Origin: Bacilli bacterium
GTDB taxonomy: Bacteria; Bacillota_I; Bacilli_A; RF39; UBA660
Assembly: GCA_036649735.1 (NCBI GenBank)
Contig: JAVWBB010000003.1
Location: 1-40,042, forward strand
DNA: 40,042 nucleotides
Direction of reading: 5' to 3'
The stretch's first letter is position 1; every line of letters begins with the position of its first letter. Made by a program: the position numbers and the translations under genes. Positions 1 to 34,963 of the stretch are shown here, piece by piece. A model generated the notes under the pieces. That model was given only the letters and a program-made list of their open reading frames with translations. It made no database searches and was not told where the DNA came from.

Positions 1-47
1 CCTTGTATCAATAGTATATCAAATTAGAGGTTAAAAAAAAAGAAGAT

Positions 48-1061
48 TTATAAAATCTCTTCTTTCATTAAATATTTAGCCGTTCTGACCATTTGAGCAG
101 AATATCCCATTTCATTATCGTACCAAGCAACAATTTTAACTAATTGTTTATTATTTACTTCTAAAACGCTTGTTGATAAACCATCGACCATGGCCCCACA
201 TTTTGACCCGATTATATCAGATGAGACAATTGGATCCATTGTGAATTTTAATGTTTCATTGGTGTTGTTTTTAAATATATTGTTTATCTCTTCTACCGTC
301 GTATTCTTAGATAGTTCAAGAGTTAAATCAATAACAGAACCAGTTGAAACAGGTACTCTCATGGCTGTCCCATTTAATTTTCCTTTTAAACTAGGAATAA
401 CTAAACCTATTGCCGAAGCGGCTCCCGTTGATGCTGGAATAATATTAGCAGCGGCGGCCCTTCCTCTTCTTGCTTCAATGCCTTTTTTGTGAGCAATGTC
501 AAGAGTGGCTTGGTCATTTGTATATGCATGTACTGTTGTCATATACCCTTTTTCTATACCAATAGAATCATTTATAACTGCAAGTACAGGGGCTAAACAA
601 TTTGTGGTACAACTTGCAGCCGATATAATTTGCTCATCCTTAGTTAAAGTTTTTTCATTAACATTATAAACAATTGTCTTTAAATCACCTTTAGCTGGTG
701 CGGAAATAATAACTTTTTTGGCCCCAGCTATTATATGAGCATAAGCTTTATCATAATCAGTAAAATGTCCACTACACTCAAATACTATATCAACCATTAA
801 TTCTTTCCAAGGTAAAACACTTGGGTCTTTTTCACAAAACACTTTAATTTGTTTACCATTTACAATAATTAAATCATCAACATAGCTTATTTCATCAACT
901 TTATAATTACGATGATTAGTATCATACTTTAATAAATACGCTAACTGCTTAGCATCCGTTAAATCATTAATTGCCACGATTTCAAAATCTTCATTTCCAA
1001 ACATTTCTCTAAATACAAGTCTTCCAATCCTTCCAAATCCATTAATTGCTACTTTTATCAT
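48..1061 (-). CDS. gap: Type I glyceraldehyde-3-phosphate dehydrogenase
   Basis: AINGFGRIGR Rossmann start, catalytic ASCTTNCLAP, WYDNE C-terminal motif. Confidence 0.98.
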   Translation of the reverse strand: MIKVAINGFGRIGRLVFREMFGNEDFEIVAINDLTDAKQLAYLLKYDTNHRNYKVDEISYVDDLIIVNGKQIKVFCEKDPSVLPWKELMVDIVFECSGHFTDYDKAYAHIIAGAKKVIISAPAKGDLKTIVYNVNEKTLTKDEQIISAASCTTNCLAPVLAVINDSIGIEKGYMTTVHAYTNDQATLDIAHKKGIEARRGRAAAANIIPASTGAASAIGLVIPSLKGKLNGTAMRVPVSTGSVIDLTLELSKNTTVEEINNIFKNNTNETLKFTMDPIVSSDIIGSKCGAMVDGLSTSVLEVNNKQLVKIVAWYDNEMGYSAQMVRTAKYLMKEEIL

Positions 1062-1073
1062 TTCTTTTTCTCC

Positions 1074-2135
1074 TTATTTACAACATTTTTCTACTTGTTT
1101 ACTATAATTTTCATCTAAATAACTTATCAATTGCGTATAATTTTTACCTACATCAAATGTTGATTCAAAAGTAGGACCTGATATTTCACTACTATAAAGA
1201 CCAATTTGTTTATCTTTACTAACATTCTTATTTATATTATTAACAATTTTTGCTATATTCCTAACTGCTTCTACTTGATATTCATTCATATTATCTGGCT
1301 GCCAAATAATTAAAAAGCCTAAAGATACTTGTACTAAAACATCAGAACTGTTATAAACCATTGCAGGAATATCCATCTTAGAAGCATCAATATCTGAATT
1401 CATATTTTGAAAAACTACATCAAATTCAAAAGCATGTTGCATTCCTTTTACAGTACTTTCATAAGTTTTTTCTTTTGTTATAACCATCACACCTGCATTT
1501 GTATTATTAACTGGATATTTACTTTTATTATCTACTGTTAATACTTCTGTTAAATCAAAATTACGATATTTATCAAACATTTCTTGTTCTTCTTTAGTTA
1601 ATTGTCCTAGTTTTTCTTTTAAATAATAGTCCAAAATCATCGAAGTTAAAACATGATTGTTTTGCCTTAAGTCATAATTATCAATAGTAAAACCATTCTC
1701 ATTTTGCAAATAATTTTTTAATTTAATAAAATCTTTACTAGAAGATGCTTCTAATTCTTTGAATTTTGTTCTTATATTTATCGCATCTTTTGAGGTAATA
1801 AATTGTGCTACAACACAACTTAATGACCTTCTTTTATCTGCTGTAATATTGCCTTCTTCTGTTTTTCTTATTAATATTCCGTCTCTAATAACAGAAAAAC
1901 CTGCATTAATATATTCTTGATACATTTTATCTACATCAACATTATAATCGTCATTAATAAAAGATAATTGTCTTTCCTCATCGCTGTTTATATTATAATC
2001 AAAATTTAATTTTAAATCATCACTAATTATTTTTAAGCTAGATTCAGTAATAGTTAAATCTAAAACAGTAACTTCTCCTTCTTTAAACAAATAAGTTTTG
2101 CCAATATCATATTTAGTATCTTTAAATTTAAACAT
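1074..2135 (-). CDS. Hypothetical soluble protein, 353 aa
   Basis: Long ORF with RBS AAGGA and its own promoter; no family recognised. Confidence 0.8.
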   Translation of the reverse strand: MFKFKDTKYDIGKTYLFKEGEVTVLDLTITESSLKIISDDLKLNFDYNINSDEERQLSFINDDYNVDVDKMYQEYINAGFSVIRDGILIRKTEEGNITADKRRSLSCVVAQFITSKDAINIRTKFKELEASSSKDFIKLKNYLQNENGFTIDNYDLRQNNHVLTSMILDYYLKEKLGQLTKEEQEMFDKYRNFDLTEVLTVDNKSKYPVNNTNAGVMVITKEKTYESTVKGMQHAFEFDVVFQNMNSDIDASKMDIPAMVYNSSDVLVQVSLGFLIIWQPDNMNEYQVEAVRNIAKIVNNINKNVSKDKQIGLYSSEISGPTFESTFDVGKNYTQLISYLDENYSKQVEKCCK

Positions 2136-2162
2136 ATTAAAATCCTTTCTTACTACGTCTAT

Positions 2163-2191
2163 ATTGTACTATTTTTAACCTACATTATCAA
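2163..2191 (-). promoter_or_regulatory. SigA-like promoter for hypothetical gene and gap
   Basis: TTGATA-17bp-TACAAT on - strand. Confidence 0.55.
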
Positions 2192-2215
2192 TATTTAAGT
2201 AATATTATGTAAAGT

Positions 2216-2246
2216 AAAAAATAGATACTCTAAAATATCTATTTTT
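2216..2246 (-). terminator. Probable intrinsic terminator after tam41
   Basis: AAAAATAGATA / TATCTATTTTT inverted repeat overlapping the stop; AT-rich stem. Confidence 0.5.
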
Positions 2247-3129
2247 GATAAATTCTCTTTTTAACTTTTTGAATAACATATTTAGCCGAATCAGCAGTGC
2301 CTATTGTTCTTAAACCTTTATATGTTTGAATAATACTATCTGTAAAGTTTTTCTTTATAAATTTATTATCAATTTCTTTATTGGATACTTCAAAGAAATT
2401 ATCTAAATCAAAATATTCTAATAATGATAAAAATAAATTATGACGATTAATATTTATTGTTTCATCTTCATTAAGAGTATATAATTCATCATCTGTATAC
2501 ATTAATTTAAATTCATTAAAACATCCTTGAACTGTATTTTTAACTTTATGTGGATTTTCAACAAACAACATACGAGTATCACCCATAAAAGATAATTCAC
2601 ATATTTCTTCAAATAATTCAGTTATCGTATGTTCTTTGCTTTTTTCTTTATATAGTTTCCATAAAACAATAATTAAAGCCTTTTTTCTATTTTTAGCAAT
2701 TCGGTTATCAAAGTTTAAATTAGATTTAATAAAGTTAATAGGTTTTTGAAATCTACCAGCTATAAAATATGATTCCCAATATTCTAATTCACGAATAAAA
2801 CTTTTATTAGAAATTACGCCTATTTTAAATGTATGATTAGCATCTATTAAAAATGGCAAATAAGTTATTTCTGAACCTAAATCATTTTCTTTTTTTTCAT
2901 AATTACTTAAATATTTAGCTGCACTCCTTTTATAATCTTGAGGGTTCATTTGCATATTTTGTTGATGCCACTTTTTCATATCCTCTACAACTAAGATTAT
3001 ATCTATTTGTGTATCTTGATTTAATTTCTTATTTATTTGGGTAAAAACACCGGAACCATATCCATAAGCTCCCAATACTTCAGGTCTATGTTTTAAAAAG
3101 TCTATAATTATATTTTTAATATCATCCAT
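2239..3129 (-). CDS. tam41: Tam41/Mmp37-family phosphatidate cytidylyltransferase (CDP-DAG synthase)
   Basis: Ordered Tam41 motifs: GYGSGVFxQ, DIILVV, WHxxNxxxNPxDY, KIGVIS, WxxxxIAGRFQKP, LSFMGDTRM, ENPHKVKN. Confidence 0.92.
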   Translation of the reverse strand: MDDIKNIIIDFLKHRPEVLGAYGYGSGVFTQINKKLNQDTQIDIILVVEDMKKWHQQNMQMNPQDYKRSAAKYLSNYEKKENDLGSEITYLPFLIDANHTFKIGVISNKSFIRELEYWESYFIAGRFQKPINFIKSNLNFDNRIAKNRKKALIIVLWKLYKEKSKEHTITELFEEICELSFMGDTRMLFVENPHKVKNTVQGCFNEFKLMYTDDELYTLNEDETININRHNLFLSLLEYFDLDNFFEVSNKEIDNKFIKKNFTDSIIQTYKGLRTIGTADSAKYVIQKVKKRIYQK

Positions 3130-3153
3130 GCTACTTCACTCCTTTTAGGAAAT

Positions 3154-3181
3154 AGTATAGCATTTAATTTGTTATTGTCAA
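3154..3181 (-). promoter_or_regulatory. SigA promoter of tam41
   Basis: TTGACA-16bp-TATACT with extended -10 TG (TGcTATACT). Confidence 0.65.
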
Positions 3182-3186
3182 TATTT

Positions 3187-5616
3187 TTAAATATCTGTTC
3201 GACTAAGTATTGCGGCTGGTGTTTTCCTTAAAGTTGTAAAGACTGGAAGGAGCCCAACAATTATATTAAATCCATATATAATTATTAAAGCAACTATTAT
3301 TACAAAAGGGTTAATTAAATATTGATCTTTAAACATTGATATACTACTAGCCTTACTTAATGCATATAACATAAGAACAAATCCACTCATACTACCCATT
3401 GTAGTAATAGAAATAATTTCTCCTAAAAACATCTTATAAATATCACCTTTTTTAACGCCAATCGCGCGTAATGTTCCTACTTCTTTAATACGTGATAAAA
3501 ATGATGCTCTAATCATTAAAAATATTTCAATTAAAGAAATAATCATAATAATACTAGCAAATATAATACTAGATATAATCTTCTCTTTTACTGAACTGAT
3601 GTATTCACTTCTACTTCTTTCATAACTTTCATAAATATTTAATTTTTTTTCATTAAAATACGAAAGTGTTTTATCCTTATCTTTAGGATATATGACAAAA
3701 TTAGTATTATTACTAATTACACTATATTTAATTGTATTACTGTTTACAATCATATTATCCATATTATATTTATTATCATAGTAACCAACTACTTTTAATT
3801 TTATACCATTTATTTTATAATCTATTTCTTTATTTAAAGGCATTGCTTCTTTATTACTAATATTAACTATAACTTCATAATCATTGCTAGGAATTCTTCC
3901 TTCTTTTAAAGTTATTTTATCTTTTAATAAATTATAATTAATAATATTATTTTGCCCCTCGGAAGCAGGATATTTATTTGAATCATTTTTTTCAATACTA
4001 TTAGCAATTATATCAATAAACATTGTTTCATCAACATAAATAGAAGGGCTTTTTAAATCAACTATTCCAACAATCGTAAAATTATTCATATTATCAATTG
4101 TAATAGTTTTACCAATTAATTCTTTAGCATCCCTTACCCCAACTTGTTTAGCTATATTAGATTTAAACATATTATTTATAGTAAATAAATCTACGACAAC
4201 ATCATTAGCTAAACTAGGCATCTTTCCATATATTATATCATTTTTATTCAACATTTTAGTACTTGCTAAAGAACCCTTTAAATTATCCATTGCATTAGCA
4301 GTTTGATAATAATAATTATATCTAAGTTTAAAATTAACTATTGAATTACTTGGTAAAATATAATTAACACTATCTAACTTTTCATATTCTAAATAATTAT
4401 TAATACTTTTATTTCTAACTATTAAATTTAAATAATTTTTATTAACTGTTACAAACTTACTATCTTTTATATTAGTAATACCCATTATATTACTTACTGA
4501 ATATAAGATAAACATTGCTGAAACAAAGAACCCTCCTAATAAAATCTTCTTTAAGAAAGGATAATTAAATACTTTTTTAAATCCATTTATAATTAAAGTA
4601 ACAGGATTAAAAATTGATTTATATTTAAGTTTAAAATTATTATTTATTATTTCATTAAATTTAAATTGATATTTACTTGTTTCATCTTTATTAATCTTTT
4701 TATAATGTTCATCAACTATCTCTATATTTGAATTATCATCAATTACTTCGACTTTTTCTATCTCATTATTTTCTATGTAAATATTTCCGTTTTTTACGAC
4801 TAATAAAATATTTAGTGGTTCTTTTTCATCACTATAATAATTAATATTTAAATTATCTTTTTTTATTTCCTGATGATTTTTCATATCTTTTAAATATATT
4901 TTATTGTCAATTCGATAATCTAATTCTAAAGCATGGTCATTTTCTTTATCGCTAACTATTTTACCATCAGCTAATTCTATAATTCTTGAAGAGTAAAAAT
5001 TAGCTAAATCTTTTTCATGAGTTACTAAAATAACTAGTTTATCTTTAGAAATGGCTTTGATAATATTCATTATTTCTAAAGTATTTTTACTATCTAAGTT
5101 TCCTGTTGGTTCATCAGCAATAATTATATTAGGGTTTTTGACTATGGCTCTAGCAATCCCCACTCTTTGTCTTTCACCACCTGAAAGCATTGAAGTAAAA
5201 CGATTTCTATAACGATATAATCCTAAAACCTCTAATACATAGTTAACGCGTTTAGTTATTTCTGCTTTATCTTTAATACCTATCATTTTTAAAACTAAAG
5301 CAATATTTTCAAAAACACTTAAACTATCAATTAAATTATAATCTTGAAAAATATAACCTATATTTAGATTTCTAATTTCATCTATTTTAGCTGTTGAAAA
5401 TCTAGTTAATTTTTGATTGTTAACATAAATTTCTCCACTATTTACTTTATCTAATCCACCAATAGCATTTAACAAAGTAGTCTTTCCTGAACCAGAGGGA
5501 CCAAGTAAAGATACTAAACCTGTTTTAGGAAGAGTTAAATTTGTATCATTAATAACATGAATTTGATTTTTCTTATGTTTGTTAAAATACTTATTAACAT
5601 TAATTAATTTTATCAT
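3187..5616 (-). CDS. MacB/FtsX-type ABC transporter, fused ATPase and permease
   Basis: GPSGSGKT, LSGGERQR, ADEPTGNLD; one TM, large extracellular domain, C-terminal FtsX motif RIKEVGTLRAIG. Confidence 0.92.
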   Translation of the reverse strand: MIKLINVNKYFNKHKKNQIHVINDTNLTLPKTGLVSLLGPSGSGKTTLLNAIGGLDKVNSGEIYVNNQKLTRFSTAKIDEIRNLNIGYIFQDYNLIDSLSVFENIALVLKMIGIKDKAEITKRVNYVLEVLGLYRYRNRFTSMLSGGERQRVGIARAIVKNPNIIIADEPTGNLDSKNTLEIMNIIKAISKDKLVILVTHEKDLANFYSSRIIELADGKIVSDKENDHALELDYRIDNKIYLKDMKNHQEIKKDNLNINYYSDEKEPLNILLVVKNGNIYIENNEIEKVEVIDDNSNIEIVDEHYKKINKDETSKYQFKFNEIINNNFKLKYKSIFNPVTLIINGFKKVFNYPFLKKILLGGFFVSAMFILYSVSNIMGITNIKDSKFVTVNKNYLNLIVRNKSINNYLEYEKLDSVNYILPSNSIVNFKLRYNYYYQTANAMDNLKGSLASTKMLNKNDIIYGKMPSLANDVVVDLFTINNMFKSNIAKQVGVRDAKELIGKTITIDNMNNFTIVGIVDLKSPSIYVDETMFIDIIANSIEKNDSNKYPASEGQNNIINYNLLKDKITLKEGRIPSNDYEVIVNISNKEAMPLNKEIDYKINGIKLKVVGYYDNKYNMDNMIVNSNTIKYSVISNNTNFVIYPKDKDKTLSYFNEKKLNIYESYERSRSEYISSVKEKIISSIIFASIIMIISLIEIFLMIRASFLSRIKEVGTLRAIGVKKGDIYKMFLGEIISITTMGSMSGFVLMLYALSKASSISMFKDQYLINPFVIIVALIIIYGFNIIVGLLPVFTTLRKTPAAILSRTDI

Positions 5617-5617
5617 T

Positions 5618-7831
5618 TTATACTTCCTCTCTAAATGTATTCATGGCACTTTGTTTAAATAATCCTTTAGCAAATCTTATCGCTAGTAAATATGAAGTTA
5701 ACGCTAAAATAATATATAATATTATATAATCACTAAATTTCAAATATGTAAGCATTTCATAAATACCTTTACTGCCAATAATTCCATTTAATATTAAACC
5801 AATAACTATAAGTACGAATAAATATGATAAAGTAGCAATCGTAAATAATTCTATTTCTAACAATCTTTTAGATACTTTTTTAGATGCTCCTAAAATTCTA
5901 ATTGTTGAAAAATAAATATTTCGCGATTTAAGAATAATTTTAATTATAAAATATGAAATCATAAACATACTGACTACTAATATTCCAATTAAAATTACTT
6001 GTATAACGACAAACATTGCTGTTAATTCTTCCATAGGATTATGAAGAGCATCAATTAAATATAGTGAATCTAATTTTAATTTATTTAATTCTTTAACTGT
6101 CTCTTTAGCTATTTTAGCATCTTTTACAAAAACACTACTTTGATAATTTTCTTTATTATATAAACTTCTATAATCATCTTCATTAATAAAGAAAATACCA
6201 TTATATTGTTCATAGTCTGTTAATCCTGTTATACTTTTAAAATTATTTTTATTATAAATATTATTGATTGTCAAATTTAATTTATCACTAAAATATAAAT
6301 TACTGATATTAATATCTAATTTATTATTTTTGCAATTCATATTAGGACATAAATAATTTAAATCCTCAGGTATATATACATTTCCTTTAGTAACATTTGG
6401 ACTTATAATAATATTATATAAATTATTATTATTTTCATTTTTTAAAACTTTATTATTTAAAGTGGATTCTAAGTTGCTATATATTTTATTTGAGGAATAG
6501 CGAATATCATTCATCACTTTATTACTAGCAAATATTTTACTATGATAATCTTCAGTATAAGAAATTCCGACTATCTTTATTTTATAACTTAATACTTTCC
6601 CGCCTATATTACCATTTTCTACTTCTGTTTCTCTATTTAAAATAGAATCATATTCATTTTTAAACATATAATCATTTTTATAAGCTGTAACAATAACTTC
6701 ATTATCTGCTTTAGGCATTACTCCTTTGTCAACTTTTCCGGTAAAAGTTTTTAAGTTATTAGCGTATGCCCCAATAAAATATTCGCCAATATTAATTGAT
6801 AATTGGGTATCTAATGAAGCATCATTTTCGGTTATATAGTTAACATTTGATAATTTTTCAATCTTTTCATAGTCCAATTTAGTAAATGGGGTCTTATCTA
6901 ATTTTTTAATAACAATACGTTCTGGTACAACATTATTAAAGTATTGATTCCATCCCCCTAAAGAATTATTATAATCTTGTTCTTTAAAAGAGGCATATTC
7001 ACTAATTACTCCAATACTTAAAAATAAATAAACTATCATTAAAAGTAAAAATTTAGGAATAACATTAAAAGTATTTCTAACACCTAAGCGTAATTGATTA
7101 AGAAAAGATATTTGTTTAAAATTATTAATTTTAGGTGCAGTTACTTTTGAATAATCCTTTAATTTTTTATCTTCTAAAATATTCCCATCGTGCATTTTTA
7201 TTTTCCTTGTTGCATATTCTTCTATTTGTTCATAATTATGTGTAACTATTATAACTAATTTATCTTTAGCTACTTCACTTAATAATTTTAAAACACTAGT
7301 GGCAGCCTTACTATCTAAATTTCCAGTTGGTTCATCAGCTAAAATAATTGGCGTATCCTTGGCTAAGGCCCTAGCAATTGCGACTCTTTGTTTTTGCCCA
7401 CCAGAAAGTTTTGATACTTTCGTTTTCTTATATTTAATAAGCCCAACTTCTTTAATAATATTAATTATTTTTTCTTGTATATCGCGTTTATTCTCGCCGT
7501 TTAGTAAAAGAACAAGTTCAATATTTTGATATACCGTATAACTATTAACTAGATTAAAGGCTTGAAAAATATTCCCAATATATTTTTTACGATAATCTTC
7601 TAAATCTTTTTCATTATAATGACTAGTTTCCTCGCCATTTATATACATTTCCCCTTCTTCATAAGAATCAAGCCCTGCTAAAACATTTAGTAAAGTTGAC
7701 TTCCCACTTCCCGATTCTCCGGTAATTGCTACAAATTCGCCTAATTCAAACTCTAAATTAATTTTAGAAAATCCACTGGCAATTACACCTTTATTATAAT
7801 AAAACTTTGATACATTTTTTAATTTTAACAT
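5618..7831 (-). CDS. MacB/FtsX-type ABC transporter, fused ATPase and permease
   Basis: GESGSGKS, LSGGQKQR, ADEPTGNLD; 1+3 TM topology with RILGA motif. Confidence 0.92.
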   Translation of the reverse strand: MLKLKNVSKFYYNKGVIASGFSKINLEFELGEFVAITGESGSGKSTLLNVLAGLDSYEEGEMYINGEETSHYNEKDLEDYRKKYIGNIFQAFNLVNSYTVYQNIELVLLLNGENKRDIQEKIINIIKEVGLIKYKKTKVSKLSGGQKQRVAIARALAKDTPIILADEPTGNLDSKAATSVLKLLSEVAKDKLVIIVTHNYEQIEEYATRKIKMHDGNILEDKKLKDYSKVTAPKINNFKQISFLNQLRLGVRNTFNVIPKFLLLMIVYLFLSIGVISEYASFKEQDYNNSLGGWNQYFNNVVPERIVIKKLDKTPFTKLDYEKIEKLSNVNYITENDASLDTQLSINIGEYFIGAYANNLKTFTGKVDKGVMPKADNEVIVTAYKNDYMFKNEYDSILNRETEVENGNIGGKVLSYKIKIVGISYTEDYHSKIFASNKVMNDIRYSSNKIYSNLESTLNNKVLKNENNNNLYNIIISPNVTKGNVYIPEDLNYLCPNMNCKNNKLDINISNLYFSDKLNLTINNIYNKNNFKSITGLTDYEQYNGIFFINEDDYRSLYNKENYQSSVFVKDAKIAKETVKELNKLKLDSLYLIDALHNPMEELTAMFVVIQVILIGILVVSMFMISYFIIKIILKSRNIYFSTIRILGASKKVSKRLLEIELFTIATLSYLFVLIVIGLILNGIIGSKGIYEMLTYLKFSDYIILYIILALTSYLLAIRFAKGLFKQSAMNTFREEV

Positions 7832-7873
7832 ATTATTTTCCTTTCACACAGTATATATATTATACACCATCTA

Positions 7874-10477
7874 TTAAATATTTTCCTCTCTTATTACATC
7901 TAAAATATTTTCATGCTTTTGTTTTTTAACTGCATACATCATTGTTGTAAGTGTAAGAACAAAAACACCAATAACACTAATTACTATAGCTGTATAAGGC
8001 ACTATTAAATCATATGATGCAATACTATTAAAGATATAATTAAATAAAACAATAAAACCAAATGAGACAGGAAGAGCATAAAATAAAGCTTTAATTCCAT
8101 AAAAGAAACTTTCAAAAAGAATCATTTTATTAAATTGAAGGGGTGAAAGGCCAATACTTCTTAACACAGCAAATTCTTTTCTTCTTAATGCCATACTTGT
8201 ATTTATAGTATTAAAAACACTCGTAACTCCTATTAATGTAACTAAAGTAATAAATCCATAAAGTAATATTGATATAACTAAAACAAAATTATTTTGAAAC
8301 TTTTTCATTTTAGCAACATTATTAATAGACATTTTATTATTTGCATTTTCTTTATAATCAATGGCTTTTTTAATATCTTTTTCACACTTATTAAAATCTT
8401 TAGCTTGAATACCAAAACCAGTATATACATTAATATTAGCCTTTTTAATAATATCCTTTATCATCGTATTAGAAACAATCGCACTAGGAAAACGCCTAGA
8501 TATATCTAAATCTTTTAAATATTTTGGTTCCTCATTAGCTAAATATAATTCATAGTCTAAATTTATTCCATCATTAGGGTACTTATTTGTATCATCACTT
8601 TTACGAGGATTTTCTTCGTAAGCATATAATTTATTATTATCCATATTCTTTAATGGCTTAACAACAAAAGTTTTATGGTTTTCATTTTGATATTTAAAAG
8701 AATTAAAAATAATTATTTTATCTTCTTTTACATGAATCTTATTTAAATATTCTTGATATAATTTATCGTCAATTGCATATATAAGAATAGGAATTTTATT
8801 GTTATTTGATGATATTACTTCAGGATAGAAGTTAATAAATTTATAATAATCAATCCCTTCTTTAGTTAAATTGTTTTTATTAATATCAGCAAATATCGTT
8901 GTATATTGGATAATTATTAATTTATCTATTGATGATACTTTACTTATCTTTTTCGTGTATTCATCTATTTTACTATCTTCTTCTAATTTAGATTCCCATA
9001 AATCAACATAAATATCCATATTATCATACATAAATATATCCTTTGTAGCTTTATTCCCAATTGTTAAAAAAGTAGAGAAGGAAATAAATAAAACGATACT
9101 TACAAATAAACTAATGATAGTAATACGATATTTTTTCTTATTTCTTTTAATGTTTTTATAGGCAATTGAACCTTCAATACCAAATAATTTATTAATTAAT
9201 TTATTACTTTTTACAGATTTCTTATTTAATTTAATATCATCATTTAATCTAATCGCATCAATAGGATTTATTTTAGCTGCTCTTTTAGCAGGCAAATAAG
9301 CTGATATTATAATTGTAATTATCATATAAACAATAGGTAAGATAATAAATAATGGATAAAGAGTAATAACAAAACTTATTTCTAACATTTCAGAAAGTAA
9401 ACTATTGATAACTAAAATAGTAATTGCAACTCCTCCAATACCAGATATAATTCCTAAAGGAATACCAATTGCAGATACGATTAAGGCTTCAAAGAAAACA
9501 GTCTTTTTTAATTGTTTAGAAGTAGCTCCGATACTAGAAAATAAACCAAATTGTTTTTTTCTTTCCATTACAGATATAGCAAAAGAATTATATATTACAC
9601 TAGCACAGGCAATAGTTAATAATAATAAAACTACGGCTATAATTTCAGCTATAAAAGCATTAAAATTGTCATAACTAGATTGACCATAAAACGCTAATAA
9701 AGTATCATTATATGAAACTTTATCATCGCTAATTTTTAAGTTTTTTAATATTTTATCCGTTTTTTCTGTAATATTTTTAATGTTTTTATATTCTATAAAC
9801 ACATCAAGTTTAGAATCACTAGTTAACTGCTTGTTAACTGTAATTGCCGTATACCCTGGTGATGAATAATTTTCATCATTTAATCTTTTAATAATTCCTA
9901 CGACTTTATATTCGCATTTATCAATAAGTTTTAATGTTTCGCCTTCTATAAAAGGATTATTTTGTGTTAAAACTTCTTCTTGATTATTATTAATAATTAT
10001 ACGATTAGAAATATCTAAATTTATGACATCCCCAACTTTAATAGATGACATCCCATTTGTATTAGTGTGTTCTGATATTAATAATTCGTAATTGTTTTTA
10101 GGTAATGTCCCGTCTACTAGTTCAACATCTTTTAAGTATTTTTGGTTAACATTTATAACATATAAATATGGTTTATACTCATTAGAACTGTCTATTTTTG
10201 CATATCCTAAAGCATTAGTCCATTTCAGCTTACTTTTATCAACGTTAATATTATCTTTAATATATTTATAATCATTATATTTAACATCGCCAATAATAAC
10301 ATGTTGTGAACCAGAATGATTAATAGTATCCTCAATTAAAAATTCTCTAAAAGAAGAAGCAAAAGTTCCTATTCCTACCATCAATGCAGTTGATAATATT
10401 ATGCCAATAATAGTTACAATCGTTCTTTTTTTATTCATCTTTAAATGCTTAATAGTTAATTTATTTAATATATTCAT
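7874..10477 (-). CDS. FtsX-like ABC permease with duplicated architecture
   Basis: Two FtsX repeats (ERKKQFGLFSSIGA, RRKEFAVLRSIG), about 8 TM segments, two extracellular domains. Confidence 0.92.
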   Translation of the reverse strand: MNILNKLTIKHLKMNKKRTIVTIIGIILSTALMVGIGTFASSFREFLIEDTINHSGSQHVIIGDVKYNDYKYIKDNINVDKSKLKWTNALGYAKIDSSNEYKPYLYVINVNQKYLKDVELVDGTLPKNNYELLISEHTNTNGMSSIKVGDVINLDISNRIIINNNQEEVLTQNNPFIEGETLKLIDKCEYKVVGIIKRLNDENYSSPGYTAITVNKQLTSDSKLDVFIEYKNIKNITEKTDKILKNLKISDDKVSYNDTLLAFYGQSSYDNFNAFIAEIIAVVLLLLTIACASVIYNSFAISVMERKKQFGLFSSIGATSKQLKKTVFFEALIVSAIGIPLGIISGIGGVAITILVINSLLSEMLEISFVITLYPLFIILPIVYMIITIIISAYLPAKRAAKINPIDAIRLNDDIKLNKKSVKSNKLINKLFGIEGSIAYKNIKRNKKKYRITIISLFVSIVLFISFSTFLTIGNKATKDIFMYDNMDIYVDLWESKLEEDSKIDEYTKKISKVSSIDKLIIIQYTTIFADINKNNLTKEGIDYYKFINFYPEVISSNNNKIPILIYAIDDKLYQEYLNKIHVKEDKIIIFNSFKYQNENHKTFVVKPLKNMDNNKLYAYEENPRKSDDTNKYPNDGINLDYELYLANEEPKYLKDLDISRRFPSAIVSNTMIKDIIKKANINVYTGFGIQAKDFNKCEKDIKKAIDYKENANNKMSINNVAKMKKFQNNFVLVISILLYGFITLVTLIGVTSVFNTINTSMALRRKEFAVLRSIGLSPLQFNKMILFESFFYGIKALFYALPVSFGFIVLFNYIFNSIASYDLIVPYTAIVISVIGVFVLTLTTMMYAVKKQKHENILDVIREENI

Positions 10478-10479
10478 AA

Positions 10480-11157
10480 TTACACCAACTCATCATTGAT
10501 AATTTTTCCATCTTCAATAGTTAAAATACGATCAGCATATAAAGCTAAATTATGGTCATGAGTAATCATAATAATAGTCTGATTATATTTTTTATTAGAT
10601 ATTTTTAATAAATCAATTATTTCTAAACTACTTTTACTATCTAAATTACCAGTTGGTTCATCAGCAAGTAAAATAGCGGGGCGATTCATTAAAGCTCTTC
10701 CAATACTTACTCTTTGTTGTTGCCCTCCAGATAATTCATTAGGCAAATGCATAAGTCTATTTTTTAAACCTAAAGTTTCGATTATTTCATCTAAATATTT
10801 TAAATCTACTACTGCATTATCAAGTAATATGGGTAAAGTTATATTTTCTGTTATATTTAAAATAGGAATCAAATTATAAAATTGATAAATAAGTCCTACT
10901 TGTCTTCTTCGAAATATAGCTAAATTAGTTTCATTTAATTTATAAACATCACACTCATCTACAAAAACTTTTCCACTAGTAGGGCGATCTACTCCCCCTA
11001 ATATATGCATAAGCGTTGACTTCCCTGAACCAGATGCCCCAACAATTGCAATAAATTCTCCTCGTTTAACAGTAAAAGAAACATTATCAAGAGCAGTTAC
11101 TTTTGTATTACCTTTTCCATATATTTTTGTTAAATGTTCAACTTTTAATAATTCCAT
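10480..11157 (-). CDS. ABC transporter ATP-binding protein (LolD/MacB class)
   Basis: GASGSGKS, LSGGQQQR, ADEPTGNLD; start moved to MELLKV after RBS AAGGAG. Confidence 0.95.
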   Translation of the reverse strand: MELLKVEHLTKIYGKGNTKVTALDNVSFTVKRGEFIAIVGASGSGKSTLMHILGGVDRPTSGKVFVDECDVYKLNETNLAIFRRRQVGLIYQFYNLIPILNITENITLPILLDNAVVDLKYLDEIIETLGLKNRLMHLPNELSGGQQQRVSIGRALMNRPAILLADEPTGNLDSKSSLEIIDLLKISNKKYNQTIIMITHDHNLALYADRILTIEDGKIINDELV

Positions 11158-11158
11158 C

Positions 11159-11824
11159 TTATTCTCCTTTAAAATTCCATCTATAATGACCACTTATAGG
11201 ATATTTTTCATCCCATTTAAGTAATGTATCTTCTTCAAAATTAAATTGTCCTGCATTATGAATTATGTAGCTTATACCCTTTTTATTTCTTTTATCTGAT
11301 ATGATACCTATATGTTTTGTTTTAAATATTACAATATCACCAGCTTGAAAATCGCTAAAATTATATGGGTTATTTGAGTGTTTCTCTAAATATTTATCAA
11401 AATATACTTTTAAATTTAATACTCTTCGAAAATCAATATTCTTATCTTGTTTATTGGCAACACGGGGATAATCATTAATATTATTTTTAATATCTTCATC
11501 AATCAAATCTTTTAAATTATATCCAGCATTTTTTAAAGCTCGCCAAATAACATCGGTACATACTCCTTCTGTTTTAGGTGGATATCCCCCACTATAATAT
11601 TTACTTTTATATTTTGGATGACGTTTTGCTTCTTTTTTAGCCCCTTCTAAAATGTCCGTAAAGTCATCTCTCTTGTTATTATTATAATCAAGGCTACTTT
11701 TAATAAAATTAATATTAAAGTCCTTATCATAATAAGCCTTAGGCGGATTCATAAATAAGCATCCCACTAGAAATGCTAATATAATAATGATTAAATAAAG
11801 ATTTCTCTTTTTAGTTATTTTCAT
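11159..11824 (-). CDS. DUF1287-family exported protein
   Basis: N-terminal hydrophobic anchor; YYSGGYPP, GVCTDV, NIDFRRV, HIGI, HN motifs; start moved to ATG after GGAGGA. Confidence 0.85.
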   Translation of the reverse strand: MKITKKRNLYLIIIILAFLVGCLFMNPPKAYYDKDFNINFIKSSLDYNNNKRDDFTDILEGAKKEAKRHPKYKSKYYSGGYPPKTEGVCTDVIWRALKNAGYNLKDLIDEDIKNNINDYPRVANKQDKNIDFRRVLNLKVYFDKYLEKHSNNPYNFSDFQAGDIVIFKTKHIGIISDKRNKKGISYIIHNAGQFNFEEDTLLKWDEKYPISGHYRWNFKGE

Positions 11825-11844
11825 AAAGTCCTCCACTGTTTACC

Positions 11845-11889
11845 ATTATACTTTATATATATGACAAAAAAGTGACTATTTTATTACAA
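11845..11889 (-). promoter_or_regulatory. Candidate OmpR/PhoB-family activated promoter
   Basis: TTGTAAT-N4-TAGTCAC-N4-TTGTCAT (11-bp period) followed after 10 bp by TATAAT. Confidence 0.55.
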
Positions 11890-11900
11890 TGTAGTCACTT
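11865..11900 (-). terminator. Probable terminator after histidine kinase
   Basis: AAGTGACTA / TAGTCACTT stem followed by a T run. Confidence 0.5.
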
Positions 11901-13094
11901 AATATTTTTATATAATTTAATTGTAAAAGAAGTAATATTATTTTCCGACTCTACTTTTATAACTCCGTTATTATTATCTAAGATACTTTTAGTCATATTA
12001 AGCCCAATTCCTATACTACTAATGGAACTGTTTTTCCCCTTATAAAATCTTTTAAACAAATTATTTAAATCTTCCTTATCAATTGTTTCACCTTGATTTT
12101 GAATAATTATTTCACTATACAAAGGATTATTACTTACAGTAACAATTATATCATTATTTTCATAACCATGTTCATGAGCATTTTTTATAACATTAAAGAT
12201 TGCTTCTTTTAACCAATTATAATCACTAATAATCATTATGTCTTTTTCACAATTAATAATCAGATTTTGATTCTTTAATTCAAAATTAATTAACAGTTCT
12301 TCTTTAATATTATTTAATAATTTAAATAAATTGCACTCTTCTTTTTTAAATGTTATTGTCTTACTATCCATTTTAGCAATTTTTAAAAGCGATGTTACTA
12401 ACCATTCAATTCTTTTTAATTGGGAATTACTTTTTGTAATAAATTCTGTTTTATCATTACTATTTAATTTATCATTTAGTAACAACTCATTAATTACAAA
12501 AAGAGATGTCAATGGGGTTTTTAATTGATGTGAAATATCCGACAAAACTATTTCTAAATTATTTTTATCTATATAATAAACATCTCTTTGTTTTTTTAAC
12601 TTTGTTGTTAGTTTATAAATATTATTTATTTCAACACTTTCATCACTTTCATTATAATCAGCAAAGTTAAAGTTAAAGTCATCATTTAAAATACTTTTAA
12701 TATACATTTCTAATTTCTTTTTATGTTTTAAGTCTTTGCTACTTTTTTTAGTATAAATAATAACAAATAAAGTTAATATAGTTATACAAAATAAAATACT
12801 AATTAAAATAGTTCTTTCTTTAAAACTATCAAAATCACTTAATGAAAGAATTGTGGATTTTTCTATCCCATACTTATTTAATAAATGCAAATCATTGCTA
12901 CTATTAGAATCATCTAATATTTCAATTATTTCAGATTCTAAATGGGGATATTTTTCCACTAATTTATTAGTAATATTTGCTGTATTATTCATTAAAATAT
13001 TTTTATAATCATTAATAATTAAAAAAGTAAAACAACTAGTAAAAGTAAAACAAATAAATGTCATTAAAACTAAATTTAAAATGTCTTTTTTCAT
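11895..13094 (-). CDS. Membrane sensor histidine kinase
   Basis: Two TM segments, H-box SHQLKTPLT, N-box NVIKNA, F-box LFKRFY, GIGL. Confidence 0.93.
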   Translation of the reverse strand: MKKDILNLVLMTFICFTFTSCFTFLIINDYKNILMNNTANITNKLVEKYPHLESEIIEILDDSNSSNDLHLLNKYGIEKSTILSLSDFDSFKERTILISILFCITILTLFVIIYTKKSSKDLKHKKKLEMYIKSILNDDFNFNFADYNESDESVEINNIYKLTTKLKKQRDVYYIDKNNLEIVLSDISHQLKTPLTSLFVINELLLNDKLNSNDKTEFITKSNSQLKRIEWLVTSLLKIAKMDSKTITFKKEECNLFKLLNNIKEELLINFELKNQNLIINCEKDIMIISDYNWLKEAIFNVIKNAHEHGYENNDIIVTVSNNPLYSEIIIQNQGETIDKEDLNNLFKRFYKGKNSSISSIGIGLNMTKSILDNNNGVIKVESENNITSFTIKLYKNIK

Positions 13095-13762
13095 ATATTA
13101 GCCTTATATCCTAAGCCTCTAACCGTTAAAATTATTTTAGGATTATTAATATCTTCTTCAATTTTTTCTCTAATTCTTTTTATGTACACAGTTAAAGTAT
13201 TGTCATTCACATAAGCTAAATCACAATCCCAAATGTCGGCAAGTATTTGTTCTCGTGTTAATATTTGATTGCGATTAGTAATTAAAATTAATAAAATTTT
13301 ATATTCTAAAGCAGTTAAAAAAACATCGTGATTATTCTTTGTTACTTTGCCTTGTTTAGTATTTATTACTAAGTCATTTATTTTAATTATGTCACTGTTA
13401 GTAAAATCATTACGTCTTAAAATGTTTTTAATACGCGATAGTAATTCTCTAACTTTAAAGGGTTTAGTAATGTAATCTTCGGCACCTAAATCTAAGCCTC
13501 TAACAATATTAATCTCATCATCAAGAGCAGTTAAAAAGATAATAGGAGCCATAGAATGCTCTTTTATATTAGTATATAAATCAAAGCCATTACCATCAGG
13601 AAGAGTCAAATCAAGAATTATTAAATTAAACTCTTTTTCTGATAATATTTCTAAGGCCTTACGACAATTTCCTACTAAACTAGTAAAATATCCTTCATTA
13701 TTTAACAAATGAAGTAAACTATCACCAATAGTTATATCATCTTCAATTATTAGTATATTCAT
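13091..13762 (-). CDS. OmpR/PhoB-family response regulator
   Basis: IEDD, LDLTLPD, KPF receiver motifs; wHTH ending TVRGLGY; 4-bp overlap with kinase. Confidence 0.95.
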   Translation of the reverse strand: MNILIIEDDITIGDSLLHLLNNEGYFTSLVGNCRKALEILSEKEFNLIILDLTLPDGNGFDLYTNIKEHSMAPIIFLTALDDEINIVRGLDLGAEDYITKPFKVRELLSRIKNILRRNDFTNSDIIKINDLVINTKQGKVTKNNHDVFLTALEYKILLILITNRNQILTREQILADIWDCDLAYVNDNTLTVYIKRIREKIEEDINNPKIILTVRGLGYKANI

Positions 13763-32296: not shown

Positions 32297-33277
32297 TCAA
32301 CTACGATATTTCTTTTTCCACTCATTAAAATCCCAATTAGCTAAGAATTTGTGAGCTGCATATATACCATTTTTGTATAATTCTTTACTTTCAGTCTTAG
32401 AAATAGCAAAATTAGTCGCACTTATATCTTTCTTTTGACCTTTCAAATAAACCATTGTAGAAATAGGAACAGTTCTAGCAAAATCTCCTTTTGAGATTGA
32501 AATATATTCTTTATCATAAGCATCTAAAGTTGTTGTAATAATCATTTTTAAATATTCTATAATATTAACATCATATATTTCTTTTGTTAACTTAGTAGAA
32601 TCACTGACAAATTTAAAACCAAAGGTAGGTATAAGTGTTTCTTTCTTGCCATTGTCTAATACCCAAACCGGGTAATTACTTAAAAGACCACCATCGACAA
32701 TTAAATGAGTATTACCATAATTATCAATTAGTTTAAATGGCTCATAAAATATAGGAATACTCATACTCATTCTTACAGCTTTAGCTATGCTAAATTCATC
32801 GGGATTAAGTCCAAATAGCTTTAAATCATCAGGTAAAATTAACAGCCTATTATTGGTTAAATCTGATGCCGTTACATATAATTTATATTTATGTTCTTCA
32901 GGCTTTAAAATGTTCCTTTTAATATCTTTAAATTTAACTTTTCCTTTTTTAATTAACAATTCATTTAGCCATTCTTCAAAGTAATCAGCATTATAAATTC
33001 CAAAGTCTAGTCCTATATTTAATGTTTTACCAATTATTCCAAATTTAGATAAAAAAGAAGGTTGTTTAAATTTTAAATAATTAAGAGAACCCATTATTTT
33101 AGTTATTTCCATAGTATTATATCCTACAGCAAGTAATGCCCCAATAATTGCCCCAGCTGAGGTTCCAACAATATTAATAAATTCATAATTGTTATTTTCA
33201 AAAACAGAAATAGCCCCAACTAATCCAATTCCTTTAACGCCACCACCTTCAAAAGCCCCATTACATTTAATACTCAT
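32297..33277 (-). CDS. Patatin-like phospholipase
   Basis: GGGVKG, GTSAG, DGG; start moved to MSIKC after GGAGTG. Confidence 0.93.
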   Translation of the reverse strand: MSIKCNGAFEGGGVKGIGLVGAISVFENNNYEFINIVGTSAGAIIGALLAVGYNTMEITKIMGSLNYLKFKQPSFLSKFGIIGKTLNIGLDFGIYNADYFEEWLNELLIKKGKVKFKDIKRNILKPEEHKYKLYVTASDLTNNRLLILPDDLKLFGLNPDEFSIAKAVRMSMSIPIFYEPFKLIDNYGNTHLIVDGGLLSNYPVWVLDNGKKETLIPTFGFKFVSDSTKLTKEIYDVNIIEYLKMIITTTLDAYDKEYISISKGDFARTVPISTMVYLKGQKKDISATNFAISKTESKELYKNGIYAAHKFLANWDFNEWKKKYRS

Positions 33278-33337
33278 AATTATCACTCCACTGTAACATA
33301 TGAATATTTTGTAATTGTAATGATTAAAATTACCCAT

Positions 33338-33360
33338 AAAAAAAGCCTTTTATGGCTTTT
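33338..33360 (-). terminator. Terminator after GGDEF gene
   Basis: AGCC-ataaaa-GGCT followed by a T run. Confidence 0.55.
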
Positions 33361-34963
33361 CAATACTATCTAATTTTTTTGTATATACTATGTAATTAAC
33401 TTTACCTTTATTAGATTTAGCTTTATACATAGCTGTATCTGCTTTTTTCATTAGTTTACTATAAATATCTTCATTATTAGAAAAAGCTACTCCAATACTA
33501 GCGGATACTTTAGCATCACTATTTTCTATTATTATCATGTTATTTATATCATTATAAATATTACATAACATATCTAAAACCTCTTTCTTTGATGCATAAA
33601 TATCTATAAAGCCATAAAACTCATCCCCACCTAAACGACTAAACAAAATATTTTTACTTTGATACTTATTAAGTATTTCGGCCGTTTTAATAAGAACAAT
33701 ATCACCCACATCATGACCATAAGTATCATTTATTTTCTTAAAGCCATCTAAATCCAACATAATAGCTGCTTGTTTTTCTCCTTTTACAAATCTCTGCTTC
33801 ATTACTCTATAAATAGCTTGTCTATTGGGAATATTAGTTAATACGTCAACAAAAGCATGATATTCTAAATCTTTTTGAGACTTATTTAAATTCTCAGCCA
33901 TAATATTTATATCATCATACAGTTGTTTAAATTCATCATCATTGTTGTATCTTGTTCGATATGTTAAATTACCACTGGCAATTTTTTTAATATTATTAGA
34001 TAAATCTACTAATGGCGTAATTAACTTTTTAACTGTCTTAATACTTATATGAGTTGATATTGCATAAACAATTGTCGTCAACATTAAAATAAGCATACTA
34101 ACTCTAATAGCCTCAGCAAATACTTCTTTTTCATTAATAGTTGCAACTACTACCCAATTATTATGATAAACTGTATGATAACTAGCTAAAATAGATGTAT
34201 TTTCTTTATCATAACTAATAAAACCCGCTTTTTTTTCCAACTTATTTTGCTTAACATTATTTAACAAATTAATCAATTGCTTATTATGTGGTGTTTTATT
34301 AATCTCTCCTACATAATCCTTATAATAGTGACTAATTATTTCCCCATCATTATCTATTACATACAAATAACCAGATATTCCTAGTTTATAATTACGAATA
34401 CTAGAAATTACATAATCCATATTAAAAAAGTTGACAATTAACCCTATTGGTTTATTAAATTGATCTAAAATAGGAGCACTCACAACAATTTCTTTAGCGT
34501 TATTCTTTTTTTTATTTAATTGCCAATTATATTTTTCTGAAAAATTAAAATATTTTTCTAATTTGACATTTGTTCCTTCATAGTCTTTGTCTGATGAGCA
34601 AATTACTTTTCCATTTAAATCAACTATGGCACTTCTATTCATATAAATACTAGTTTTATTAGACAGTTCTAATAATCGACTAACATCTGTGTATAAGTGA
34701 TTATCTACTATATTTTGTTTATTAGAAATATCTAATAATTGTTTATATGATTCAATTTCTTTAGAATATATAATTGTGTTTATTTGTTCAGTGTAATAAT
34801 TGTTTATTTGCTTAGAAACCGCTAATGCAAGGTCCTTTAAATACCGTTTATTAGTATTAAAAGCGGAGTAAGAAATAGATATAAAAGTAATTACCGATAT
34901 TAAAACAAGTGGCACTACAGCCAATGATATTAATAATTTAGGCATTTCTTTTTTAACATTCAT
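33350..34963 (-). CDS. Membrane diguanylate cyclase (TM-dCache-TM-HAMP-GGDEF)
   Basis: DVLTNIPNR, DLDGFKKINDTYGH, RLGGDEF, ADTAMY; Cache motif GYLYVIDNDGEIISH. Confidence 0.93.
   Translation of the reverse strand: MNVKKEMPKLLISLAVVPLVLISVITFISISYSAFNTNKRYLKDLALAVSKQINNYYTEQINTIIYSKEIESYKQLLDISNKQNIVDNHLYTDVSRLLELSNKTSIYMNRSAIVDLNGKVICSSDKDYEGTNVKLEKYFNFSEKYNWQLNKKKNNAKEIVVSAPILDQFNKPIGLIVNFFNMDYVISSIRNYKLGISGYLYVIDNDGEIISHYYKDYVGEINKTPHNKQLINLLNNVKQNKLEKKAGFISYDKENTSILASYHTVYHNNWVVVATINEKEVFAEAIRVSMLILMLTTIVYAISTHISIKTVKKLITPLVDLSNNIKKIASGNLTYRTRYNNDDEFKQLYDDINIMAENLNKSQKDLEYHAFVDVLTNIPNRQAIYRVMKQRFVKGEKQAAIMLDLDGFKKINDTYGHDVGDIVLIKTAEILNKYQSKNILFSRLGGDEFYGFIDIYASKKEVLDMLCNIYNDINNMIIIENSDAKVSASIGVAFSNNEDIYSKLMKKADTAMYKAKSNKGKVNYIVYTKKLDSIEKP

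Follow-up and report, generated by a model that had tools for sequence, protein, structure and literature searches.

Background

FbTam41, a Tam41-type enzyme of a Firmicutes bacterium, is said in the abstract of Kimura 2022 to be active in vitro and to substitute for yeast Tam41. Its structure is PDB entry 7ECD (Kimura et al. 2022, J Biochem 171:429). The passages on bacterial Tam41 in PMC11646218, which cite Kimura 2022, describe it as making CDP-diacylglycerol (CDP-DAG) and as probably membrane-bound via its C-terminal domain, and place homologues in firmicutes and proteobacteria. In mitochondria, according to the Tam41 passages of PMC7018664, the enzyme turns CTP and phosphatidic acid into CDP-DAG as a peripheral protein anchored through a basic amphipathic helix at its C-terminus, and for the S. 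pombe Tam41 the same passages give the domain layout, the sequential binding of CTP and phosphatidic acid, and the C-terminal amphipathic helix. The same reaction is predicted for CdsA (PF01148), an unrelated integral-membrane fold with the same downstream consumers (PgsA); the E. coli CdsA has a further part in making the MPIase glycolipid, a task of which yeast Tam41 is incapable (Sawasato 2019, as cited in passages of PMC7018664). The Tam41 passages of PMC8027125 and PMC7050145 are silent on its distribution in bacteria, and a full-text literature search, the coverage of which leaves out most subscription journals, returned neither a survey of bacterial Tam41 nor a report of carriers devoid of CdsA.

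Here we present a computational analysis of a Tam41-like gene found in a window of 40,042 nucleotides, i.e. the whole stretch of DNA analysed (contig C3 of assembly GCA_036649735.1), from a gut-type Bacilli bacterium. Bacterial Tam41 was known before, and the gene of the window is a divergent further member of the family. We compared it with the characterised enzymes, looked for CdsA in its genome and in those of its relatives, and placed it in trees with eukaryotic homologues.

Tam41 family membership

The gene is the only open reading frame (ORF) at its position, and is accompanied by three candidate expression signals:

2239..3129, minus strand: predicted Tam41/Mmp37-type CDP-diacylglycerol synthase gene, ATG start, TAG stop, 296 aa
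3139..3144, minus strand: ribosome-binding site AAGGAG, read from the sequence, 9 nt before the ATG at 3129
3154..3181, minus strand: promoter-like site, -35 TTGACA (3181..3176), 16-nt spacer with TG, -10 TATACT (3159..3154)
2217..2246, minus strand: AT-rich 13-bp hairpin, overlapping the TAG stop and running into a short U tract

The ORF belongs to the Tam41/Mmp37 family, far above chance. It matches the Pfam profile PF09139 (Tam41_Mmp37) with an E value of 5.2e-51 and 174.3 bits for a cut-off of 24, in two stretches, the best of which pairs residues 17-213 with positions 11-205 of the 322 of the profile; this stretch ends at position 205 in the window protein versus 322 in its relatives, the C-terminal third fitting less well. 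At E <= 0.1 the ORF matched no second Pfam family, PF01148 (CdsA / CTP_transf_1) included, and the sole NCBIfam hit, to AAC(6')-Im, reached 15.4 bits for a cut-off of 350. Among PDB sequences searched with phmmer, the protein matched 7ecd_A, the Firmicutes Tam41 that carries the PDB name phosphatidate cytidylyltransferase, at E 4.9e-47 and 163.8 bits over residues 4-275, and the S. pombe mitochondrial Tam41 (6ig4/6ig2) at about E 4e-26 (6ig4, E 3.9e-26) over residues 20-211. Tam41 is single copy in the genome according to a six-frame PF09139 search (164.7 bits). A word-indexed protein search of public data returned 23 hits, the best of which, P0001, is 98% identical to the window protein and of equal length, all others being at most 41% identical. 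An earlier note, made from the letters of this DNA, had read the ORF as a Tam41/Mmp37 protein and proposed the Pfam profile as a check; this assignment is borne out by the 174.3-bit match, by the PDB sequences and by the fold. The strand, which the note leaves unsaid, is minus. The note was also right that a Firmicutes Tam41 had already been structurally characterised, 7ECD being recovered both by sequence and with Foldseek.

Conserved residues, fold and C-terminal helices

The window protein was aligned with 25 bacterial homologues obtained from the word-indexed protein search and from the genomes of relatives (26 rows). All 10 invariant columns are kept (D43, N58, K102, R126, K129, S180, R186, E191, K195 and Y211), a set that includes the single conserved aspartate and the basic residues (K102, R126, K129, R186, K195) of the predicted pocket. 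At columns conserved in at least 90% of the sequences, 24 of 26 are retained, the exceptions being Y181F and P233F. The motif blocks GAYGYGSGVF, AGRFQKP, LSFMGDTRM and ENPHKVKN stand in the order typical of the family, as the earlier note had said of the hallmark motifs.

An AlphaFold2 model built on the same 26-row alignment (pLDDT 90.1, pTM 0.89) has the domain order of Tam41, with a nucleotidyltransferase domain at about 1-135, a helical/winged-helix domain at about 138-240 and two C-terminal helices within 250-295. The top five Foldseek matches in the PDB are all Tam41, with 7ecd at the first rank (E 2.5e-25, TM 0.80/0.87, 37% identity) and four 6ig4/6ig2 chains at ranks 2-5 (E about 1e-13, TM about 0.6, identity about 26%). 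The next class consists of antibiotic nucleotidyltransferases (best E 1.8e-4, TM about 0.25). These proteins, AAD(9), ANT(4'), ANT(6) and LinB, share a remote nucleotidyltransferase fold likeness with the window protein (E 1.8e-4 to 5e-3) but differ from it by TM values of about 0.25-0.31, by the lack of any sequence-level match and by the absence of the Tam41-specific motifs; the ORF is not an aminoglycoside or lincosamide nucleotidyltransferase.

The modelled C-terminal helices span residues 250-276 and 278-295. With hydrophobic moments of 0.51 (260-277) and 0.47 (278-295, with a net charge of +4), they rank among the most amphipathic 18-residue windows of the protein. Since a matching helix is described for Tam41 in passages of PMC7018664 and PMC11646218, these predicted helices fit a peripheral binding to the membrane by a basic amphipathic C-terminus.

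The window protein thus resembles FbTam41 (7ECD) in its PF09139 match, its two-domain fold with C-terminal helices, its length (about 290-300 aa), the lack of a presequence and its membership of the same bacterial Tam41 clade, but is only 37% identical to it and stands on a long separate branch. With the mitochondrial Tam41/Mmp37/TAMM41 it shares a homologous core of nucleotidyltransferase and winged-helix domains, but its GYGSG motif starts at residue 23 versus about 56-78 in 12 rows of the eukaryote side of the tree (including three named fungi), its C-terminus is shorter and identity falls to about 26%.

Expression signals and gene surroundings

The promoter-like site falls within the 57 nt that separate the ATG of tam41 from the stop codon of the ABC gene upstream. 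It scores best among the sigma-70-like sites of positions 1-11000, with 11 of 12 consensus matches, in a scan that stands overall at chance level (99 sites versus 96.3 in shuffles). This consensus match makes a function as tam41's own promoter plausible. The hairpin that overlaps the stop codon folds with a dG of -9.6 kcal/mol (z -2.14), a stability that 5 of 200 shuffled sequences also reach, and a terminator scan requiring three G-C pairs reported nothing 3' of tam41, this hairpin included; a role as weak intrinsic terminator is possible. Of the promoter and terminator that the earlier note had attributed to the gene, the former is therefore plausible, with its 11/12 site and the ribosome-binding site AAGGAG, but the latter is weak.

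Directly downstream of tam41 lies a 353-aa ORF (1074-2135, minus strand) with its own promoter-like sites in a 103-nt gap. It matches neither Pfam nor NCBIfam, ESM Atlas gave nothing usable for it, and no counterpart stands beside Tam41 in 53 related loci. On the other side, positions 3187-13762 (minus strand) hold a row of genes for two fused ABC ATPase proteins, of which one carries an FtsX domain, for a large FtsX permease and a further, separate ABC ATPase, for a DUF1287 protein, and for a histidine kinase together with an OmpR-type regulator, an ensemble that presumably resembles a BceAB-type module for peptide-antibiotic sensing and efflux. Further along (32297-34963, minus strand), a patatin-like phospholipase adjoins a Cache-HAMP-GGDEF diguanylate cyclase, an unexpected signalling capacity in a genome of about 1.1-1.5 Mb.

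The CDP-DAG pathway in the host genome

The assembly comprises 1.147 Mb in 137 contigs, is 77.6% complete and has a GC content of 25.0%. The window is an ordinary piece of chromosome with gap, fused ABC transporters with FtsX permeases, a two-component system, clpP, whiA, trpS, trxB, lgt, uvrA, uvrB, prfB, secA and vanY, and the composition of tam41 (GC 23.3%, GC3 12.5%) is like that of the neighbouring genes.

The search for cdsA that the earlier note had called for was successful: an intact gene, separate from tam41, stands on contig C5 (PF01148, 192.2 bits, 266 aa) in the usual order uppS-cdsA-rseP. Because of this intact cdsA operon, Tam41 can only supplement CdsA in this genome, and of the two roles offered in the note, replacing or supplementing CdsA, the second alone holds here. 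The genome also carries two CDP-alcohol phosphatidyltransferases (PF01066), one in a pgsA-recA context and one beside corA. A cardiolipin context such as that of the mitochondrial enzyme was not seen, the best match to a PLD-type cardiolipin synthase staying under the cut-off (19.2 bits) in this 77.6% complete genome.

Distribution of bacterial Tam41

Tam41 is confined to the window's own family within the class genomes sampled. Among 60 relatives, three of 36 genomes of this family exceeded the PF09139 cut-off, with one further degenerate hit of 20.9 bits, and none of 24 from other families did. In an even sample of the class, carriers amounted to 4/49 in the own family and 0/349 in the others (two more genomes being unscored), and a sample drawn at the level of the phylum gave 1/16 and 0/382 over the cut-off, respectively, with one 17.7-bit hit in the latter. 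A wider scan of one genome per species over 185,579 species, based on two peptide patterns taken from an 11-row alignment, revealed at least 53 species genomes with a Tam41 relative, a count that is a lower bound. The genomes of these 53 loci nearly all go by names such as uncultured Bacilli or Tenericutes bacterium, Candidatus Scybalousia or Candidatus Coprovivens. Finally, when 1.84 billion cluster representatives were searched with a profile, 3097 hits were obtained at E <= 1e-3, of which 957 reached E <= 1e-30; these counts include eukaryotes. The rarity of bacterial copies asserted in the earlier note is thus true of the class genomes sampled, with their single carrier family, but has to be set against 53 species genomes with a relative.

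Several copies depart from the single ordinary gene. In genome G422, two Tam41 genes of 289 and 318 aa follow each other in one frame, with a single stop codon and 21 nt between them (L008:316-2163), and in another tandem (L040:822-2717) one copy is ordinary while the other stands on a very long branch (2.85). The degenerate hit in the window's own family corresponds to a 274-aa Tam41-like ORF (L006:1153-1977, genome G035) that scores 20.9 bits, below the cut-off, and in which the GYGSG motif is replaced; it is a degenerate or repurposed copy.

Gene neighbourhood was tried as a functional clue and rejected. Around the 53 loci (436 ORFs), 20 neighbour clusters were annotated from one representative each, and no phospholipid gene was found among them, so that context lends no independent support for the role of Tam41. 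The recurrent neighbours are XseA/XseB, ValS, a small RelA_SpoT-domain protein, a CmpB-like membrane protein, ProS, Ddl/Mur ligase/MurI, RadC and MreC; as the loci come from related genomes, these recurrences represent synteny. The idea that Tam41 goes together with a second CDP-alcohol phosphatidyltransferase was likewise dropped for want of a usable pattern in 24 family genomes: the two Tam41 carriers (G010, G019) have three copies each, and the 22 genomes without Tam41 include 15 with two copies and two with three.

From coexistence with CdsA to its apparent replacement

All five Tam41-bearing family members examined also have CdsA. Across the genomes of the 53 Tam41 loci, PF01148 was found over the cut-off in 45 and not in the remaining eight, five of which (L013 G573, L014 G574, L016 G576, L034 G571 and L060 G619) share gene order around Tam41. 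The four of their Tam41 proteins that are full length group together in the FastTree to the exclusion of all others (support 100). PgsA-type enzymes were detected in all five of these genomes and a match to CarS (PF01864) in none of the five. The usual flanks of cdsA are also visible, with uppS in 3/5 genomes and a strong rseP match in 4/5, each without an adjoining cdsA; the three rseP loci showing their upstream side are preceded by ORFs of 225 aa and 118-119 aa, neither of which appears to be cdsA. Since cdsA is missed in all five genomes while both usual flanks can be seen, a true loss is likely in this subclade, though its assemblies come without a completeness figure, and Tam41 may be its sole CDP-DAG synthase.

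The protein of L016 matches 7ECD with 427.9 bits, where three other clades reach 270, 236 and 195 bits and the window protein 163.8. L016 being by far the closest, the characterised enzyme belongs to the subclade with apparent CdsA replacement. Replacement of CdsA therefore seems to occur in the five-genome subclade and not in the genome of the window, which keeps its CdsA, unlike the closest relatives of FbTam41.

A different arrangement was observed in genome G034, where tam41 stands in the order valS-uppS-tam41 (L003:724-2379). The only uppS found in this genome is directly upstream of tam41, and cdsA-rseP lies on another contig without uppS, so that tam41 holds the usual place of cdsA beside uppS.

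Phylogeny and the eukaryotic gene

A FastTree phylogeny was computed from 217 rows, comprising the window protein, the stored proteins up to P0168 and the proteins of the loci, all of at least 250 aa, shorter rows being dropped. Its midpoint split separates 131 from 86 rows. The larger side holds the window protein and 50 of the 51 GTDB loci, with no named eukaryote, and the smaller side holds all named eukaryotes (fungi, Heterostelium, Thecamoeba, Diphylleia, Paramecium and a jellyfish, according to cluster look-ups) together with the remaining locus, L061. A second tree (IQ-TREE, quick search, LG+C20) was limited to 55 rows, including 24 bacterial loci picked at random from the 50, 10 named eukaryotes and three rows labelled archaeal, of which only P0079 bears an archaeal name. 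The 13 eukaryote and archaeal-labelled rows fall on one side of a branch with an SH-aLRT of 92, and the window protein falls among the bacterial rows, on a branch of length 1.32 within a group supported by an SH-aLRT of 93. This long branch, of about 1.1 (FastTree) to 1.32 (IQ-TREE) changes per column, is shared with P0001. Without a presequence and without any grouping with eukaryotes, the window protein does not belong to the mitochondrial Tam41 subgroup. The phylogeny suggested in the earlier note, which had seen in the gene a bearing on the origin of its eukaryotic counterpart, thus yields a bacterial clade apart from the named eukaryotes, but as the trees are unrooted the direction of transfer between bacteria and eukaryotes, donor or recipient, cannot be read from them.

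The exceptional locus L061 (4977-5864, genome G570) encodes a Tam41 homologue identical to P0079 in a 1.1-Mb archaeal-labelled metagenome-assembled genome. The genome is labelled Methanosarcinales and the NCBI name of the protein is Nanoarchaeota archaeon; no PF01148 match was found in G570. On the eukaryote side of the tree, the L061 protein falls within a subclade made up of short metagenomic proteins.

Discussion

We propose, with a probability of about 80%, that ORF 2239..3129 encodes a working Tam41-type CDP-DAG synthase, a peripheral-membrane enzyme that operates in parallel to CdsA as a second source of CDP-DAG and not as its replacement. Family membership, fold and conserved residues are observed, as are cdsA and pgsA in the same genome, and we infer the catalytic activity, the binding to the membrane and the division of labour with CdsA. 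CTP-Mg2+ would be held in a basic pocket between the nucleotidyltransferase and the helical/winged-helix domains, while phosphatidic acid would enter from the bilayer, at which the basic amphipathic C-terminal helices would hold the enzyme. CMP would then be transferred onto phosphatidic acid, giving CDP-DAG and pyrophosphate, and PgsA and the second CDP-alcohol phosphatidyltransferase would consume the CDP-DAG delivered by both Tam41 and CdsA. This proposal has to contend with the long branch, the 37% identity to the characterised enzyme, the weaker C-terminal fit to the Pfam profile, the presence of CdsA in the same genome, and the absence of a phospholipid neighbour among the 20 clusters annotated from 53 related loci.

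Part of these observations would also suit a redundant relic, in which constraint has relaxed because CdsA does the work and a drifting Tam41 copy, weakly active or inactive, is maybe heading for loss. Consistent with this are the long terminal branch shared with P0001 (1.1 and 1.32 in the two trees), the intact CdsA, and the degenerate 20.9-bit ORF of the relative G035; moreover, most sampled family members are devoid of Tam41 (carriers 3/36 and 4/49), and its loss is thus evidently tolerated. Against this, the 10 invariant columns are complete, 24 of the 26 near-invariant ones are kept, the frame is open and is preceded by a ribosome-binding site and a strong promoter-like site, the model is confident over the full length (pLDDT 90.1), and a 98%-identical full-length copy (P0001) exists elsewhere, so that we consider the relic unlikely. 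Divergence of the sequence could alternatively reflect a shifted acceptor, the Tam41 fold now serving a nucleotidyltransferase acting on another lipid phosphate or on a small molecule, a different job that would explain the coexistence with CdsA. The remote fold neighbours among aminoglycoside and lincosamide nucleotidyltransferases (E 1e-4 to 1e-3) point that way, as does the adjacency of uppS and tam41 in G034, with cdsA elsewhere, which hints at a link with polyprenyl-phosphate metabolism. Against it, the Tam41-specific invariants, including K102, R126, K129, R186 and K195, are all kept, TM values are 0.6-0.8 to Tam41 structures versus about 0.25-0.3 to the antibiotic nucleotidyltransferases, and its nearest characterised relative reportedly makes CDP-DAG (bacterial Tam41 passages of PMC11646218), which leaves a change of acceptor quite improbable.

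A recent transfer from a eukaryote, or a eukaryotic contamination of the assembly, might come to mind for a family best known from mitochondria, of which named eukaryotic proteins match the bacterial profile at E 1e-57 to 1e-66. It is hardly credible here, being contradicted by context, composition and trees alike: tam41 is located inside a 40-kb contig of bacterial housekeeping genes whose composition it shares, and its product has no N-terminal extension and groups with the bacterial sequences in the trees, apart from all of the 10 named eukaryotes.

Taken alone, the gene of the window adds little, a bacterial Tam41 structure having already been solved and the enzyme reported to make CDP-DAG. 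Beyond the working second source proposed for the window's genome, its relatives reveal that Tam41 recurs as an accessory gene within a single lineage of small, low-GC genomes. They form a natural series, from coexistence to a state in which an essential membrane enzyme has apparently given way to a soluble one unrelated to it, which could be used for asking what each of Tam41 and CdsA contributes. They also offer a broader prokaryotic sample for rooting the tree of the eukaryotic Tam41. A more far-reaching and doubtful view is that Tam41 and CdsA are non-redundant in this lineage, that Tam41 provides a separate membrane-surface pool of CDP-DAG, made for example from phosphatidic acid scavenged by these gut bacteria with their small genomes, that it is able to replace CdsA fully, as in the five-genome subclade, and that the prokaryotic Tam41 radiation with its archaeal-labelled subclade is the source of the eukaryotic gene. 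If this were true, the five-genome subclade would be the first bacterial lineage to run its phospholipid synthesis solely on a mitochondrial-type enzyme.
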